Shown: piece by piece, positions 6,013 through 10,606 of the stretch
Layout: every line of letters begins with the position of its first letter
Numbering within the stretch: the first letter of the stretch is position 1
Virus record (IMG/VR): IMGVR_UViG_2663762810_000005
Coordinates: 1 to 10,606 of that record
DNA: 10,606 nt
From: a virus
Taxonomy: Duplodnaviria; Heunggongvirae; Uroviricota; Caudoviricetes
Strand: one strand, 5' to 3'
Position numbers and translations under genes: made by a program
Notes under the pieces: model-generated
What the model saw: the letters and a program-made list of their open reading frames with translations, nothing else
The model's database searches: none
What the model was told of the DNA's origin: nothing

Positions 6013-6150
6013 TTATTTATCCCACCAAGTTCCGTATCTATCTATCCAGTTACACCAATCATCGACACTCCATTTTGTTGTGTCGCATTTTGGCAATTGG
6101 CATGAATATCTACCTTCTTTGTAAAGTCGGCGTTTGACTTTCTTGAGCAT
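6013..6150 (-). CDS. Hypothetical small Cys/Trp-rich protein (45 aa)
   Basis: Hand-translated: MLKKVKRRLYKEGRYSCQLPKCDTTKWSVDDWCNWIDRYGTWWDK. GAGGTGG SD immediately after the N stop; AT-rich. Confidence 0.35.
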   Translation of the reverse strand: MLKKVKRRLYKEGRYSCQLPKCDTTKWSVDDWCNWIDRYGTWWDK

Positions 6151-6157
6151 GACCACC

Positions 6158-6490
6158 TCAATCGTAATAAGCCGGAATTGATTTTCCGCGTTGCTTCTGG
6201 CGGCCTGAACAAGTCACACCCATTTCACTGCGTGGCTTGCGGTACCATGTGCGCTGATTCTTGCGCTCAATACGTTGCAGGTTGCTTTCAATCTGTTCGT
6301 GGTATTCAGCCAGCACCGTAAGGTCTATCGGATTCAGTGCGCTTTCTACTCGTGATTTCGGTTTGCGATTCAGCGAGAGAATAGGGCGGTTAACTGGTTT
6401 AGCGCTTACCCCAACCAACAGGGGATTTGCTGCTTTCCATTGAGCCTGTTTCTCTGCGCGACGTTCGCGGCGGCGTGTTTGTGCATCCAT
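6158..6490 (-). CDS. N: Antitermination protein N (lambda-type)
   Basis: From the ATG at 6490 the product begins MDAQTRRRERRAEKQAQWKAANPLLVGVSAKPVNRPILSLNRKPKSRVESALNPIDLTVLAEY, matching the recalled lambda N arginine-rich N-terminus. The track ORF extends 30 codons further upstream to an alternative start. Confidence 0.9.
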   Translation of the reverse strand: MDAQTRRRERRAEKQAQWKAANPLLVGVSAKPVNRPILSLNRKPKSRVESALNPIDLTVLAEYHEQIESNLQRIERKNQRTWYRKPRSEMGVTCSGRQKQRGKSIPAYYD

Positions 6491-6600
6491 CTGGATTCTC
6501 CTGTCAGTTAGCTTTGAGTAACGCGCCGTGATGCTTATCTCCACGGTTGCTGTCTTGCAGCTGCATTTCGCGCTACTCAAAGCTTTCTGCTTTGAATGCT

Positions 6601-6631
6601 GCCCTTCTTCAGGGCTTAATTTTTAAGAGCG
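6601..6631 (-). promoter_or_regulatory. nutL site (boxA plus boxB)
   Basis: Minus strand reads CGCTCTTAA-AAATTAA-GCCCTGAAGAAGGGC: boxA at 6623..6631, boxB hairpin at 6601..6615. Matches recalled lambda nutL and sits between pL and N. Confidence 0.85.
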
Positions 6632-6671
6632 TCACCTTCATGGTGGTTAGTGCGTCCTGCTGATGGCCTAA

Positions 6672-6700
6672 AATATACCTGCAGGTAAAACAGCTGTCTA
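6672..6700 (-). promoter_or_regulatory. pL promoter (leftward)
   Basis: Minus strand -35 TAGACA (6695..6700), 17-bp spacer, -10 TATATT (6672..6677). Operator palindromes overlap the spacer and -35 flank. Confidence 0.5.
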
Positions 6701-6712
6701 TACCTGTAGGTA
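6676..6712. promoter_or_regulatory. OL operators: two 12-bp palindromes
   Basis: TACCTGCAGGTA (6676..6687) and TACCTGTAGGTA (6701..6712), centres 25 bp apart. Same motif family as the three sites flanking the other side of cI. Confidence 0.55.
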
Positions 6713-6774
6713 AATAAAATTGATGTAAGAGTTTACCTGCTTGAATTTTCAGGTAATTAATTTTTTGGATTGAT

Positions 6775-6797
6775 ATAAAAAAGCCCGCTTTGCGGGC
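6775..6797 (-). terminator. Intrinsic terminator, minus strand, ending the cI transcript
   Basis: Perfect stem gcccgc/gcgggc with a 3-nt loop, followed on the minus strand by TTTTTT. Confidence 0.6.
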
Positions 6798-6809
6798 TGA
6801 AAGGAGATG

Positions 6810-7106
6810 TCAGAAGCTATTTGGATTGCTTGGCCATTGCGGCAATTTTGATTCTACTGGGGTGTGTTTGGGTTTGAGTCCGTTTAAGTAGTCAAGGCGC
6901 TCAATGGCGCATTTATACATAGCAATCTGCTCTGATGACATGTCGTCGTATGACATGCCTTTGAACTTTTTAATTATCGATTCTGCCTCATGTATAAGAT
7001 GCTTCTTCCTCATGAGTTCAGCTGTATGCTTAGAGCTTACAGGAGATAACTTTGCCCATATGAAGCAGATGATTACAACAGCGACTACTATGCCGGGTAT
7101 AAACAT
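6810..7106 (-). CDS. Hypothetical small membrane protein immediately downstream of cI (98 aa from ATG 7106; track start is a TTG at 7124)
   Basis: N-terminal TM helix (IPGIVVAVVIICFIWAKL) then about 70 aa of soluble, charged sequence. Lies between the cI stop (7121) and the terminator at 6775..6797, so it would be co-transcribed with cI. Moderately AT-rich. Confidence 0.5.
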   Translation of the reverse strand: MFIPGIVVAVVIICFIWAKLSPVSSKHTAELMRKKHLIHEAESIIKKFKGMSYDDMSSEQIAMYKCAIERLDYLNGLKPKHTPVESKLPQWPSNPNSF

Positions 7107-7120
7107 TTGCTGCTTTATCC

Positions 7121-7807
7121 TCAAACTTTTGGCAGATCGTCCTGGTCTACGTACCTGGTGTGTTTCACAATAGCTGAAACAAAATGCATTTTATCAACTT
7201 CTTCAACAGGAAGAGTGATTGGGCGGTGATCACTGTTTATGCTACTAAACTGATAATCACCGTCTCTTGTTTTGTTCATGATCTTTATCATGTTGTGACC
7301 GTCTTTGGTCCTTACAAAGACTTCATCACCTGGATGTACTGGCGTATTTGGTTCAATAACAACATATTCTCCTGACTGAATCCTTGGCCACATGCTGTCA
7401 CCCTTAACCTTCAGACCGTAAGCATCTTTATCGCCGCTGTAGATGCTTAACCAACCGGATCTGAATTCAATCATATCCACTGAGCCATCAACTCCCAAAA
7501 CGGCTTCACCAATTACCGGAACAAAACCCGCACGAACGTTACCCGCAAACTCAAGATGGTCCGTAGCTCCAGCTTTACCATCTGCAAGCATGTCCATCCA
7601 TCCGCGTGGGAGATTAAAAGATTTTTCAATTAGCTCCATCATATCGTCAGCAATGCGTTTTTTTCCGCTTTTTCCTTCCGGATACAGCATTCTGGAAACG
7701 TATGATGGTTCCCTTTCTATTCGACGAGCCAACTCTGAGGCCTTTCCATTACAGAATCGGTCTCTTATCTCTATCAGCCTTAGTCGTCTTTGTTCGTATT
7801 TATCCAT
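7121..7807 (-). CDS. cI: CI-type prophage repressor (N-terminal HTH plus C-terminal S24 LexA-like autopeptidase domain)
   Basis: 228 aa; HTH-like ASELARRIEREPSYVSRML; C-terminal GDSMWP with a downstream Lys, typical of S24 self-cleaving repressors. Flanked by operator palindromes on both sides. Confidence 0.85.
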   Translation of the reverse strand: MDKYEQRRLRLIEIRDRFCNGKASELARRIEREPSYVSRMLYPEGKSGKKRIADDMMELIEKSFNLPRGWMDMLADGKAGATDHLEFAGNVRAGFVPVIGEAVLGVDGSVDMIEFRSGWLSIYSGDKDAYGLKVKGDSMWPRIQSGEYVVIEPNTPVHPGDEVFVRTKDGHNMIKIMNKTRDGDYQFSSINSDHRPITLPVEEVDKMHFVSAIVKHTRYVDQDDLPKV

Positions 7808-7813
7808 GATTTA

Positions 7814-7842
7814 ATTCTATCTTTGATTACCTGCCGGTAAAT
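7814..7842 (-). promoter_or_regulatory. pRM-like promoter giving a near-leaderless cI mRNA
   Basis: Minus strand -10 TAGAAT (7814..7819) ends 6 nt before the cI ATG; -35 is poor (ATTTAC), consistent with an activator-dependent pRM. Confidence 0.4.
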
Positions 7843-7879
7843 AACCTATGGGTATTGATTTGCTTTTTACCTACAGGTA
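7828..7879. promoter_or_regulatory. OR operators: three 12-bp sites
   Basis: TACCTGCCGGTA (7828..7839), AACCTATGGGTA (7843..7854), TACCTACAGGTA (7868..7879); centre spacings 15 and 25 bp. Arrangement relative to pRM and pR mirrors lambda OR3/OR2/OR1. Confidence 0.55.
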
Positions 7880-7883
7880 AACT
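7855..7883 (+). promoter_or_regulatory. pR promoter (rightward)
   Basis: -35 TTGATT (7855..7860), 17-bp spacer containing an operator, -10 TAAACT (7878..7883); cro ATG follows at 7916 with an AAGGAG SD. Confidence 0.5.
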
Positions 7884-7915
7884 CATCTTATTCAACAACG
7901 GGAAGGAGATAGCAA

Positions 7916-8146
7916 ATGGAAGAACTCCGCTTGTATCTGAACTCCCTTTCACTGGAAGAGCAGAGAGAATTTGCCACCAAGTGCGGAACTTCTATCGGCT
8001 ATTTGAGGAAAGCACTTAGCCGTAATCATGAATTGGGCGCAGCACTTTGTGTTCTGATTGAGAAGTTCAGCAATGGTGAAGTGACTCGCAAAGACCTTCA
8101 TCCGGTTGATTGGGAAAGCATCTGGCCTGAATTAATGGCCGCTTAA
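7916..8146 (+). CDS. cro: Cro-like HTH regulator
   Basis: 76 aa first gene of the pR operon; HTH-like REFATKCGTSIGYLRKAL; strong AAGGAG SD. Called by position and HTH only. Confidence 0.65.
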   Translation: MEELRLYLNSLSLEEQREFATKCGTSIGYLRKALSRNHELGAALCVLIEKFSNGEVTRKDLHPVDWESIWPELMAA

Positions 8147-8153
8147 GTTATTA

Positions 8154-8188
8154 ACGCTCTTACACATCCCCGCCCTGAAAAAGGGCAT
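8154..8188 (+). promoter_or_regulatory. nutR site (boxA plus boxB)
   Basis: CGCTCTTAC (8154..8162), 11 nt, then GCCCTGAAAAAGGGC (8174..8188); near-identical to recalled lambda nutR. Confidence 0.85.
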
Positions 8189-8244
8189 TACCAGAAACAA
8201 ATCTCTATGGTTTTGCGTTTCTTTGCGAAGCCAACTCTATCTAA

Positions 8245-8288
8245 TAATTAAGGAAATTATCTATGGGTACTATTGCAACTAAAAGCAA
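8245..8288 (-). promoter_or_regulatory. pRE-like CII-dependent promoter (leftward) overlapping the cII 5' end
   Basis: GCAA-N6-GCAA on the + strand at 8275..8288 (TTGC-N6-TTGC on minus) within cII codons 4 to 9, the same geometry as lambda pRE; -10-like CATAGATAA downstream on the minus strand. Confidence 0.45.
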
Positions 8289-8544
8289 GAAAGCGGCTCG
8301 CATCGAGTCAGCCTTGCTGAACAAACTGGCACTGATGGGGCAGAAGACATTCGCTCGAGCAATGGGGGTTCCTGAATATCAGGTAAGCCGATGGAAGAAT
8401 GGTTTCTTCTCGCAGGTAAGCATGATGCTGGCTGTTCTGGAATACGGAATCGAAGACGATGAAATGGCTGAGCTGACTAAGCGGCTTGCCAATTACCTGA
8501 CAAAAGAAAAAGCCCCGAAGAACGGCGAATTCTTCGAGGCCTGA
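8263..8544 (+). CDS. cII: CII transcriptional activator
   Basis: 93 aa; ARIESALLNKLALMG...VSRWKNGFFSQVSMMLAVLEYGIEDDEMAEL closely parallels recalled lambda CII (ALRIESALLNKIAMLG...ISRWKRDWIPKFSMLLAVLEWGVVDDDMARL). Confidence 0.85.
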   Translation: MGTIATKSKKAARIESALLNKLALMGQKTFARAMGVPEYQVSRWKNGFFSQVSMMLAVLEYGIEDDEMAELTKRLANYLTKEKAPKNGEFFEA

Positions 8545-8578
8545 TGTAGAAAGACTGGATCAATCCACAGGAGTCATT

Positions 8579-8740
8579 ATGACAAAACGTCGTAAGAAAT
8601 ACCAGGAAAAAGAAGAGATTCGACACCCTGATTCACCTGAGGGATTAGTGGTAGCCGCAGCAAATAACAGGGCGTTCGCAGAGCGCCTTGTTGGTGTTTA
8701 CAGACTAGCCAAAGCAGGAGTGAAGCATGGGCGTCGTTAA
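8579..8740 (+). CDS. Hypothetical small basic protein (53 aa)
   Basis: ATG at 8579 with AGGAG 7 nt upstream; hand translation MTKRRKKYQEKEEIRHPDSPEGLVVAAANNRAFAERLVGVYRLAKAGVKHGRR; 3' end overlaps the start of the replication initiator. Confidence 0.35.
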   Translation: MTKRRKKYQEKEEIRHPDSPEGLVVAAANNRAFAERLVGVYRLAKAGVKHGRR

Positions 8741-9617: not shown

Positions 9618-10170
9618 TTTTTATGCGCCGCCCCATAGCATCGAGGCAGAGCAGGCGGTGATTGGTGGATTGCTTCTGGATGATGACAGCAGTGAGCGCG
9701 TCCAGAAGGTTCTGGCGATGCTGAAGCCTGACTCATTTTACAGCCGACCACACAAAATCCTTTTCGAAGAAATAACCAGAATGCACCGGGAGCAAAAGCC
9801 AGTAGATGGCCTGACGCTTTTCGATGAACTGGAGCGTAAATCGTTAACGGCGTCTGTTGGCGGTTTTGCTTATATCGCTGAGATCGCAAAGAACACGCCA
9901 AGCGCAGCAAACATCGTTGCCTATGCAATGCAGGTTCGTGAAACCGCAATGGAACGCTACGCCATCAACCGCATGACTGAAGCGACGGAATTGCTCTATT
10001 CCCGCAACGGAATGACTGCAACGCAGAAGTACGAAGCTATTCAGGCGATTTTCACGCAACTGACAGACCATGCAAAAACCGGATCGCGTCGCGGCCTTCG
10101 CTCATTTGGTGAGGTCATGGAAGACTGGGTTACCAGTCTTCATCGCTGTCACGGTTCAGGGTGTAGTTAA
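9607..10170 (+). pseudogene. DnaB-family replicative helicase gene (P22 gene 12-like), truncated: N-terminal domain only
   Basis: From ATG 9607 (GAGGGTG SD, overlapping the initiator stop): PPHSIEAEQAVIGGLLLD...SVGGFAYIAEIAKNTPSAANIVAYAMQVRE closely matches the recalled E. coli DnaB N-terminal domain. ORF stops after about 188 aa with no Walker-type ATPase domain; homology is lost near 10127. Confidence 0.7.
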
Positions 10171-10606
10171 AGGCGCCGGCCTGAAGCGGGCGACTCAGGG
10201 CAAATGCACCTTCTTCTGTGGTGGCACCATTCTGTGCATCCACAACCCGGATACCCTGTCCGGAGGTTGCCACCCCGAGGTTACTGTTTCCGACATTTGT
10301 AAACGCAAGCCAGGTTTTGCCGGTTGCCTGACCACCATTAATCACCAGCTGGTCAGAGGCATTACTGCCATCAAGGCTAACACGCATATTGATGGTGCCA
10401 CCCTGACCGGTGAGGTTACTGGTTGTCAGTTTATGGAACGTTACCGGGGCGTTGCCTTTTACAACAGCACGGCTCAGTACGGCATCCGGTGTTGTCTGAT
10501 TGTCAAAGTAAATCTCCCCTGCGTTAACAATATCGCCGGTACTGACCACATCACCATTCAGTACCATGCTGGCGCCTTTACTGAGCTGTGTTCTGCCACT
10601 CAGACT
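10130..10606 (-). pseudogene. Autotransporter-type (AIDA-I/Ag43-like) passenger-domain fragment, 3'-truncated; open to the window edge
   Basis: Minus-strand frame is open from 10606 to a stop at 10130; Gly/Thr/Asn-rich beta-helix-like repeats (LVINGGQATGKTWLAFTNVGNS, GIRVVDAQNGATTEEGAFALSRPLQAGAFNYTL) recalled from autotransporter passenger/autochaperone regions; no beta-barrel domain follows. Confidence 0.5.

Follow-up and report, generated by a model that had tools for sequence, protein, structure and literature searches.

Architecture of the immunity region

The window, that is, the whole stretch of 10,606 nucleotides analysed here, carries a lambdoid immunity module at about 6665-8150, flanked by lambda-type N and nutL on one side and by nutR on the other. 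The N antiterminator gene (6158..6490, minus strand; Pfam N36, E 1.5e-26) is of the lambda type, its product matching lambda N at 98 of 106 residues (92%). In alignments, nutL (6601..6631, minus strand; boxB GCCCTGAAGAAGGGC at 6601-6615 and boxA CGCTCTTAA at 6623-6631) is identical to lambda nutL, and nutR (8155..8186, plus strand; boxA CGCTCTTAC at 8155-8163 and boxB GCCCTGAAAAAGGGC at 8172-8186) has both boxes identical to those of lambda and differs at two bases of the spacer between them. The sequence matches lambda through N and nutL as far as the PL start (about 6664); from OL through orf104, cI, OR and cro the match disappears, and it resumes at nutR. A preliminary description of this DNA had proposed a mosaic immunity region with lambda-like N and nut sites. 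The comparison bears this out, with lambda-like flanks around a non-lambda OL-cro interior and a module resembling that of mEp043.

The leftward promoter PL (6664..6700, minus strand) combines a -35 TAGACA (6700-6695) with a -10 TATATT (6677-6672) across a 17-nt spacer and has 10/12 matches in a promoter scan; its putative start, about 6664, corresponds by colinearity to where the lambda PL transcript begins. PRM (7814..7841, minus strand), returned by the same scan, has its -35 TTTACC (7841-7836) within OR3, a 16-nt spacer and a -10 TAGAAT (7819-7814). As the cI ATG lies 6 nt past this -10, the layout suggests that the PRM-cI mRNA is leaderless, like that of lambda. PR (7855..7883, plus strand; -35 TTGATT at 7855-7860, 17-nt spacer, -10 TAAACT at 7878-7883) falls under the threshold of the scan and was read from the sequence; its layout is the same as that of PL. 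Downstream of cI, in the rexAB position, the open reading frame list places orf104 (6810..7124, minus strand), which encodes a small protein of unknown function (phrog_10450) with a hydrophobic N-terminal stretch, as read by eye. This gene is outside the conserved module, and relatives have other DNA at its position. An intrinsic terminator found by the terminator scan (6776..6798, minus strand) ends the PRM-cI-orf104 transcript. Rightward, cro (7916..8146, plus strand) encodes a 76-aa YdaS-like helix-turn-helix protein (Pfam YdaS_toxin, E 8e-6, under the curated cut-off; phrog_35, transcriptional repressor), a homologue of which is found beside the same repressor domain in Paraburkholderia. 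Past nutR lies cII (8263..8544, plus strand; Pfam Phage_CII, E 7.6e-30).

The cI gene (7121..7807, minus strand; Pfam PF00717, E 1.4e-17) encodes a repressor of 228 aa, which consists of a four-helix N-terminal DNA-binding domain (1-72), a disordered linker (73-95) and an S24 self-cleaving C-terminal domain. In an AlphaFold2 model the four-helix domain is predicted with confidence, and pLDDT falls below 50 at linker residues 76-92. The C-terminal fold matches the C-domains of LexA and lambda cI. The N-terminal domain showed no detectable sequence similarity to the N-domains of lambda, 933W or H-19B, and none of the solved structures is related to it in sequence. A fold match of the size of this domain to SPC32H Rep (5d50) is a lead only.

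The locus thus has a self-cleaving S24 repressor divergent from a small Cro-type helix-turn-helix gene, repeated palindromic operators over PL, PR and PRM, and an N antiterminator with boxA and boxB at both nut sites. Judged by its sequence, the region is a lambda-style on/off genetic switch of the mEp043 immunity type. Phage mEp043 (JQ182734 / NC_019706 / PV340537) has the same repressor (cI is 100% identical) and operators at the same positions, its module DNA being 98.7% identical. The split element discussed below is identical in the two, and OR3 and OR1 are the same, whereas the central bases of OL1 and OL2 differ (G to A) and mEp043 has about 160 bp of net extra DNA between the N start and nutL. 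The mEp043 record annotates a putative PL and a cII site only, leaving the operators and the split element unannotated. At least 80% of the module is present in 52 of 5,426 complete E. coli genomes; the operators defined here belong to an immunity type that about 1% of them carry.

Canonical operators

A search of the window with the operator consensus returned four exact sites and a fifth with one mismatch. The exact matches to TACCNNNNGGTA (4 against 0.04 expected; at least four in 0/200 shuffles) are OL1 (TACCTGCAGGTA, 6676..6687), within the PL spacer and -10; OL2 (TACCTGTAGGTA, 6701..6712), which abuts the PL -35, 25 bp from OL1; OR3 (TACCTGCCGGTA, 7828..7839), which overlaps the PRM -35; and OR1 (TACCTACAGGTA, 7868..7879). 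The fifth site, OR2 (AACCTATGGGTA, 7843..7854), is centred 41.5 bp from the inferred starts of both PR and PRM, and its imperfect half is also present in relatives. Of the five 12-bp palindromes in the earlier account, four are exact TACC-N4-GGTA sites and OR2 has one mismatch. The length needs amending: with the bases on either side, the operators come to about 16 bp (TTTACC-N4-GGTAAA). The OR spacing, which had been described as lambda-like, is not: OR1-OR2 and OR2-OR3 are 25 and 15 bp apart, centre to centre, compared with 24 and 23 bp in lambda.

Prophages of Paraburkholderia and Stenotrophomonas carry the same N-terminal domain and Cro together with TACC-N4-GGTA operators, arranged in the same geometry (OR 25 + 15 bp, OL 25 bp). 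The suggestion that repressor and operator specificity differ from those of lambda is supported, because the cI N-terminal domain is dissimilar to those of lambda, 933W and H-19B and because this same domain travels with its own TACC-N4-GGTA operator family. The operator sequences were not found in any paper searched, and the regulation of mEp043 is likewise undiscussed there.

A split palindrome beyond OL2

Beyond the two proper OL sites, the preliminary description had noted a pair of half-sites, and these are real: in the window, TACCTG-N{0,20}-CAGGTA matches just OL1 and 6734-6755 (2 matches against 0.01 expected). The gap between them had been given as 9 bp. With TACCTG at 6734-6739 and CAGGTA at 6750-6755, the spacer (6740-6749) is 10 bp, and the element, TACCTG-CTTGAATTTT-CAGGTA (6734..6755), consists of two half-sites that match the operator consensus, set 10 bp further apart. 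This is the layout of a regular operator opened in the middle by exactly one turn of the helix. Relative to the PL start the element occupies -70 to -91, at an offset of 43 bp from OL2, its centre being 38 bp from OL2. The A/T-rich spacer contains an invariant TTCA (TGAA on the plus strand). Next to the element, at the outer edge of the OL module, is a conserved A/T block (AAAAAATTAATT on the PL-sense strand; 6756..6768), colinear with the A-rich block upstream of lambda OL3. Promoters within the split site were considered and rejected, as the candidates on either strand, read by eye, have at most 3/6 matches in one hexamer and the scan returned none.

Conservation was assessed in 16 non-redundant relatives drawn from genomes of Escherichia, Cronobacter and Pantoea as well as viral and metagenome contigs. 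The two half-sites have mean pairwise identities of 98% and 89% in these lineages, the same degree of conservation as OL1 and OL2, compared with 63% for the linker between the split element and OL2 and 33% for the DNA past the element. Homology among the lineages ends about 12 bp past it. The spacer has 75% mean pairwise identity, with positions 2-4 mostly A or T; neither its length of 10 bp nor the 43-bp offset from OL2 varies among relatives. OL1 is conserved in its outer bases and varies in the central four (41%). The half-sites are thus neither absent nor variable in these related immunity regions, and the idea of a decayed OL3, raised at the outset, is disfavoured by the conservation of half-sites, spacing and position. 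The other two suggestions made then, a looping site with altered spacing and a site for another factor, are both possible. Because it is conserved over many related phages, the split element is probably functional rather than decayed.

The element occurs with three unrelated types of repressor C-terminal region, namely a 933W-like S24 domain, a lambda-like S24 domain and a short 137-aa protein without S24, which argues that whatever recognizes the element is linked to what these systems share: the N-terminal domain, Cro and the operators. A scan of 2.9 million IMG/VR viral contigs with the pattern TTACCTG-N4-TTCA-N2-CRGGTAA matched 46 contigs, 43 of which have OL2 and OL1 at the fixed distance; of the others, one is truncated where the locus ends and two are unrelated chance matches. 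The element is found almost only beside OL2 and OL1 of this N-domain and operator family. Within the family, one sister clade has two OL sites and no split element; its repressors, of 222 aa, share the N-terminal domain, and its OL spacing is 26 bp. Phage CharmingMan likewise combines this N-domain with a 26-bp OL spacing and no split site. Distant relatives, too, have two OL sites and no split element. These absences imply that the element is dispensable for a working switch. Some sister-clade members retain just the distal half (ATTACCTTAAAAATCAAATCGATAA) at the same position.

Possible roles of the split element

Most likely the split element serves the immunity repressor or Cro as a weak auxiliary site. 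From its anatomy, its conservation and its association with one repressor and operator family we infer the binding and regulatory steps set out here. Repressor dimers would recognize the 16-bp palindromes TTTACC-N4-GGTAAA, blocking PL from OL1 and OL2 and PR from OR1 and OR2, with OR2 placed where activation of PRM may be possible. The overlap of the operators with PL, PR and PRM, which follows the lambda pattern, was counted in favour of this scheme. In the split element, two half-sites of perfect operator sequence would face the same side of the helix, set one turn wider than normal around an A/T-rich spacer, and cI, possibly also Cro, could occupy the element as a low-affinity third site. 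This could happen in several ways: the two N-terminal domains of one dimer may splay on their flexible linkers of roughly 20 residues; two dimers may contribute one domain each, in a higher-order or looped OL-OR complex; or a dimer may sit on one good half-site and the degenerate central TTCA. Once filled, the site might add to the repression of PL, or stabilize or sense the OL-OR complex, in the manner of lambda OL3. We put the probability of a mEp043-type switch in which the split element is a conserved auxiliary OL site, acting as a low-affinity third site, at roughly 55%.

Some observations count against this proposal. The spacer is itself constrained (TTCA invariant, positions 2-4 mostly A/T), and as repressor half-sites alone leave this unexplained, a second factor or a requirement for DNA shape is possible. 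The sister clade and distant relatives that do without the element also weigh against it. According to published reports, the repressor of 933W, which has a homologous C-terminal domain, does not bind neighbouring sites cooperatively (PMC3317979, PMC5977221). Finally, the stretch upstream of lambda OL3 is colinear with the split region, and since the proximal half CAGGTAA is one base off lambda CAGATAA, part of the match may be inherited and not selected.

This last similarity bears on a different reading, which is unlikely but has the most to be said for it among the competing explanations: the region may be an element for polymerase or a host factor, a distal UP element and/or an IHF-type bending site stimulating PL (or PRM in a loop), with the resemblance to operators secondary or coincidental. 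IHF reportedly binds or has a role upstream of lambda OL3, to judge by the title of Giladi's 1998 paper. An OL-proximal UP element upstream of OL3 is described for lambda (PMC3708714, citing Giladi 1998 and later work). The region in the window shares position relative to PL and sequence ancestry with that of lambda, aligning to lambda -72 to -108 without gaps (25/37 bases identical) and remaining ungapped from the shared A-rich block to the -35. The conserved A-block and the A/T-rich spacer with its invariant TTCA would fit such an element, as would a match with one mismatch to the IHF core (WATCAR-N4-TTR) at 6747-6759. However, IHF-like matches in the window are not above chance (31 found, 23 expected), and the IHF consensus is not convincingly present there. 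The invariant TACC and GGTA, which define the operators, coincide with positions that the IHF core leaves unspecified. Further, the pattern is found almost only with the mEp043-type repressor family, and the homologous lambda stretch has no TACC or operator half-sites. A dual role, with repressor half-sites placed around a UP or bending element, is possible.

A neutral relic, in which an ancestral OL3 was split by a 10-bp insertion and fell out of use, would accord with the two-site OL regions of the distant relatives and of the sister clade, and with the lone distal half in some members of the latter. It is improbable given that the half-sites are conserved to the same degree as OL1 and OL2, in surroundings that have diverged to 33-63% identity, and that spacing and position are invariant over genera and three repressor architectures. 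Still less credible is a nucleic-acid hairpin or cruciform in place of a protein-binding palindrome. Folding predicts a 7-bp stem (-4.7 kcal/mol as DNA; z = -3.2 relative to shuffled sequence), but it is short with a 10-nt loop, the variants observed (CGGGTA; TACCTT with TAGGTG) are not compensatory, and an Rfam search of the window gave no family match. Moreover, no known transcript covers the element, which lies between the terminator of the cI operon and the PL -35.

Beyond an auxiliary site for the repressor, the element may, more tentatively, represent a second operator grammar in one lambdoid lineage, in which half-sites one extra turn apart around an invariant TTCA replace the canonical OL3. 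If so, occupation would require splayed domains, or domains supplied by different dimers within higher-order or looped OL-OR complexes, and the site would read out repressor oligomerization or looping instead of simple occupancy. No description of the split element was found in the papers searched, and a literature search for lambdoid operators with half-sites one helical turn apart yielded only direct repeats of the P2 type.

Third sites in related switches

Lambdoid switches are the textbook model of cooperative and long-range gene control. The tuning of repressor levels by third sites (OL3, OR3) varies sharply between phages, lambda using OL3 and 933W none, and a conserved site with half-sites one turn wider would be a different build of a weak, context-dependent operator. 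Sister clades that share the DNA-binding domain, with and without the element, and that carry three different oligomerization domains form a natural experiment. The split site is also easily testable, as mEp043 is cultured and grows on E. coli K-12. AraC and CytR carry their DNA-binding domains on flexible linkers and tolerate variable half-site spacing. By analogy only, as there is no homology, domains borne on the predicted disordered linker of cI could reach half-sites one extra turn apart.

As in lambda, the window has three OR sites, with OR3 over PRM, and on the PL side a third element of the repressor type lies upstream of OL2. Lambda OL3, however, is an ordinary operator of 17 bp that lies 20 bp from OL2 and covers -53 to -69. 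That position holds no operator here, and the element at -70 to -91, 10 bp wider and centred 38 bp away, departs from a canonical OL3, which would have the internal spacing of OL1 and OL2 and lie 20-25 bp from OL2.

A canonical OL3 is also lacking in 933W (PMC5977221). The repressors of 933W and H-19B have a homologous C-terminal S24 cleavage and oligomerization domain (full-length identity to cI 46-49%; for 933W, about 72% over the aligned C-domain, estimated as mean column identity in a three-way alignment), whereas the N-terminal 85 residues are unalignable and DNA-binding domain and operators differ. 933W-type operators were considered for the window and rejected, the 933W consensus being different, its N-terminal domain unrelated and its sites 15 bp long (PMC3317979). 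A search for H-19B operators through inverted repeats gave no clear answer; H-19B-type relatives have TTTATC-N5-GATAAA, unlike TACC-N4-GGTA. In SfV, the cI N-domain is 39% identical, the operators are TGTACC-N5-GGTACA and no third site lies upstream. Among groups sharing the C-domain, those with TTTATC-N5-GATAAA or TTTAGC-N5-GCTAAA operators had no +10 split sites built from their own half-sites. Suggestively, the TTATC group has TTATn-N9-nATAA, which is 4 bp wider, and in the TTAGC group a degenerate 17-mer occupies the same scaffold position, 32 bp from OL2.

A proposed variant auxiliary operator beside PL

The split site, a stretched palindrome at 6734-6755 beside PL, is best read as a variant form of auxiliary operator; the comparative evidence for its function is good, and its mechanism is a proposal only. 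Record annotations and the searchable literature yielded no account of either the operators or a stretched third element. The mosaic immunity region is itself ordinary and belongs to an already sequenced phage.

Organisation of the immunity region

A lambdoid early-control region lies within 6100-8600 of the window. On the minus strand lie N (6158-6490; Pfam N36; 98 of 106 residues identical to lambda N), orf104 (6810-7124; 104 aa; phrog_10450; its N-terminal stretch hydrophobic by eye) and cI (7121-7807; 228 aa; Pfam Peptidase_S24), and on the plus strand cro (7916-8146; YdaS-like HTH) and cII (8263-8544; Pfam). The top database match is phage mEp043 (98.7% DNA identity across 93% of the query), whose cI is 100% identical and in whose records a putative PL and a cII site, but no operators, are annotated. 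Lambda identity covers nutL and continues into the start of the PL transcript as far as ~6664; it is absent over the operators and over orf104, cI and cro, and resumes at nutR (8155-8186). The mosaic immunity region proposed in the preliminary description is thereby confirmed, its loss and return of lambda identity having, by sequence, the form of a classic immunity cassette. In the interval from the N start codon to nutL (window 6491-6600 against L001 1797-2050), an indel or replacement separates the window from mEp043, which has ~160 bp of net extra DNA; lambda carries a third version.

The C-terminal domain of cI is homologous to its H-19B and 933W counterparts (46-49% full-length identity). 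Its first 85 residues align with neither repressor, and the 15-bp operators of 933W are unlike those of the window (PMC3317979), in agreement with the suggested difference in repressor/operator specificity. The N-terminal DNA-binding domain (N-domain) has no Pfam family and no sequence relative in solved structures. The AlphaFold2 model of cI confidently predicts a four-helix domain at residues 3-63, followed by a linker that is disordered (pLDDT below 50 for 76-92) and by an S24 beta domain that matches LexA and lambda cI. In Foldseek, a stretch of this model (m44e27227a057) matched Rep of Salmonella phage SPC32H (5d50) over 71-81 columns at 26-27% identity (rmsd 1.2-3.2 Å); from its size, the stretch should be the N-domain, residues 1-72. 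For Rep, binding of one operator by two DNA-binding domains from different dimers of a tetramer has been proposed (PMC9638917).

Operators and promoters

A search of the window with the 12-bp operator consensus recovered all five sites. TACCNNNNGGTA has four exact matches (6676, 6701, 7828 and 7868; 0.04 expected), only at OL and OR, and a fifth operator with one mismatch, AACCTATGGGTA at 7843, completes OR. In PL (6700-6672, minus; TAGACA-17-TATATT), OL1 falls within the spacer and -10, with OL2 directly against the -35; in PR (7855-7883, plus; TTGATT-17-TAAACT), OR1 occupies the spacer and -10; and the -35 of PRM (7841-7814, minus; TTTACC-16-TAGAAT) lies inside OR3. The centre of OR2 is 41.5 bp from the inferred starts of both PR and PRM. 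These positions fit a lambda-type switch. Centre-to-centre distances are 25 bp for OL1-OL2, 25 bp for OR1-OR2 and 15 bp for OR2-OR3, compared with 24, 24 and 23 bp in lambda, so that the supposed lambda-like spacing of OR is borne out only in part. Lambda cI mRNA is leaderless; because 6 nt separate the end of the PRM -10 (TAGAAT) from the cI ATG (7807-7819, minus), as in lambda, the layout suggests by analogy that the cI mRNA of the window is leaderless too.

Independent support for the operator assignment comes from distant prophages of Paraburkholderia xenovorans LB400 and a Stenotrophomonas strain, which encode homologues of the N-domain and of Cro; the LB400 repressor has 136 aa and no S24 domain. 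Both prophages carry TACC-N4-GGTA sites arranged as in the window: OR has three, with spacings of 25 and 15 bp, and OL has two, 25 bp apart with a promoter in between. N-domain, Cro and operators therefore travel together across proteobacterial classes.

Anatomy, conservation and distribution of the split site

The split site reads TACCTG-CTTGAATTTT-CAGGTA, an operator whose dyad carries an insertion of exactly 10 bp, which keeps both halves on one helix face. The half-sites noted in the preliminary description thus stand, and the spacer is 10 bp rather than 9. On the PL-sense strand the element spans -70 to -91; it starts 43 bp before OL2, with 38 bp from centre to centre. Many relatives came from scanning viral contigs as well as genomes and assemblies, and OL geometry was tabulated for part of the loci found. 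Apart from the two distant prophages, all tabulated loci whose OL sites are 25 bp apart contain the split site, as do the other such loci examined (Cronobacter, Pantoea allii, viral and metagenome contigs), and the spacer length and 43-bp offset are constant in all split-site loci examined.

Mean pairwise identity among 16 non-redundant sequences is 33% in the DNA past the element, 72% in the adjoining A-rich block, 98% in the distal half ATTACCTG (7 of 8 positions invariant), 75% in the spacer (with an invariant TTCA and mainly A or T at positions 2-4), 89% in the proximal half CAGGTAAA and 63% in the linker to OL2; the OL1 halves reach 92-100%, and the four bases at the centre of OL1 41%. 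Homology between lineages therefore stops ~12 bp past the split site, which lies inside the conserved module and is constrained as strongly as the true operators. Among near-identical E. coli copies, the central bases of OL1 and OL2 and the last one or two spacer bases vary, and the half-sites are invariant.

In the reverse direction, TTACCTG-N4-TTCA-N2-CRGGTAA was searched in 2.9 million viral contigs. OL2 and OL1 lay at the fixed distance in 43 of the 46 matching contigs; of the others, one was cut by the locus end and two were unrelated chance matches. Upstream, 38 of the 46 carry an MDKYE-type repressor gene; the remaining eight comprise six with <1.1 kb of upstream DNA and the two chance matches. 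The split site occurs with three repressor architectures whose only common part is the N-domain: proteins of 228-240 aa with a 933W-like S24 domain, a 224-aa form with a lambda-like one, and a 137-aa protein with no S24 domain. The sister clade (222-aa repressors, 26-bp OL spacing, including cultured phage CharmingMan) lacks it, some members having the distal half alone at the same position. Absent there and from the distant prophages, the element is lineage-specific and non-essential for a switch.

Proposed mechanism and alternatives

On the most economical interpretation, the proteins recognising TACC-N4-GGTA would also read the split site, weakly. A single dimer could bind with its N-domains splayed apart, which the predicted disordered linker of ~20 residues makes plausible; two dimers, in a tetramer or looped complex, could contribute one N-domain each; or a dimer could occupy a degenerate 12-mer, TTCA-N4-GGTA, whose centre lies 33 bp (~three turns) from OL2, much as the degenerate third elements of sister immunity groups lie at 32-33 bp. 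The invariant TTCA falls in the middle major groove common to two alternative binding registers. By analogy with lambda OL3, binding might add PL repression, stabilise a loop or tune PRM. The 933W repressor system, with a related C-terminal domain, has no OL3 (PMC5977221) and no pairwise cooperativity (PMC3317979), so cooperativity should not be assumed here.

The initial suggestion of a decayed OL3, that is, neutral decay, is contradicted by half-site conservation (98% and 89%, against 33% past the element) in the 16 sequences. A hairpin is a weak explanation, since it would have only -4.7 kcal/mol, shows no compensatory changes and has no known transcript across it. A host factor is a possible reader. 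Over the stretch bounded by the A-rich block and the PL -35, the window is colinear with lambda and the alignment has no gap; the split region shares 25 of 37 bases with lambda (CAAAAAATAAATTCATATAAAAAACATACAGATAAC in lambda, CAAAAAATTAATTACCTGAAAATTCAAGCAGGTAAAC in the window). The lambda stretch sits directly upstream of OL3, and PMC3708714 reports an OL-proximal UP element there, citing Giladi 1998, which also names IHF in its title. The window has no operator at the lambda OL3 position (-53 to -69). This colinearity keeps a UP- or IHF-type role alive; part of the proximal half (CAGGTAA, lambda CAGATAA) may be inherited. However, the 31 IHF-core matches in the window do not exceed chance (23 expected), and it is the operators that the invariant TACC and GGTA define. 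Such a role could coexist with repressor binding.

Additional observations

The N-domain is fused to three C-terminal parts (loci L022 2501-2911 and L157 4001-4414; L152 and related loci), which at the sequence level amounts to domain shuffling within one immunity specificity; our guess is that the short form is inactivated without self-cleavage, e.g. by an antirepressor. Three immunity groups with a common C-terminal domain (the window against L007, L100, H-19B and L069-L093) have half-sites with a single-base difference, TTTACC (N4 spacing), TTTATC (N5) and TTTAGC (N5). Their N-domains look remotely homologous by eye, making a tidy case for how specificity diverges.

An operator-like site with one mismatch, TATCTATGGGTA (8258-8269), overlaps the cII start codon (8263), as does a one-mismatch site in a Cronobacter relative (L193 2519-2530); several other relatives lack it, and ~1.65 such sites per window are expected by chance. 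In the clade without the split site (L141 4443, L146 4443, L196 2943), an exact TACCCGAAGGTA lies within cI, ~440 nt from its start; it coincides with a conserved IPEG motif and may be a by-product of coding.

The orf104 gene occupies the rexAB position, its start overlaps the cI stop, and it is probably co-transcribed with cI; relatives carry unrelated genes there. It is a candidate for an exclusion or conversion gene that lysogens express.

Finally, homology to a DnaB-like phage helicase breaks off at ~10132 (window 10130-10606). The minus-strand fragment beyond has an Ag43/AidA-type autotransporter look by eye, which family search did not confirm, the fragment's sole family match being a weak PHROGs tail-fibre hit. 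No complete E. coli genome has both sides of the junction in one place; it therefore marks either a prophage that was truncated or rearranged, or a join made in assembly.
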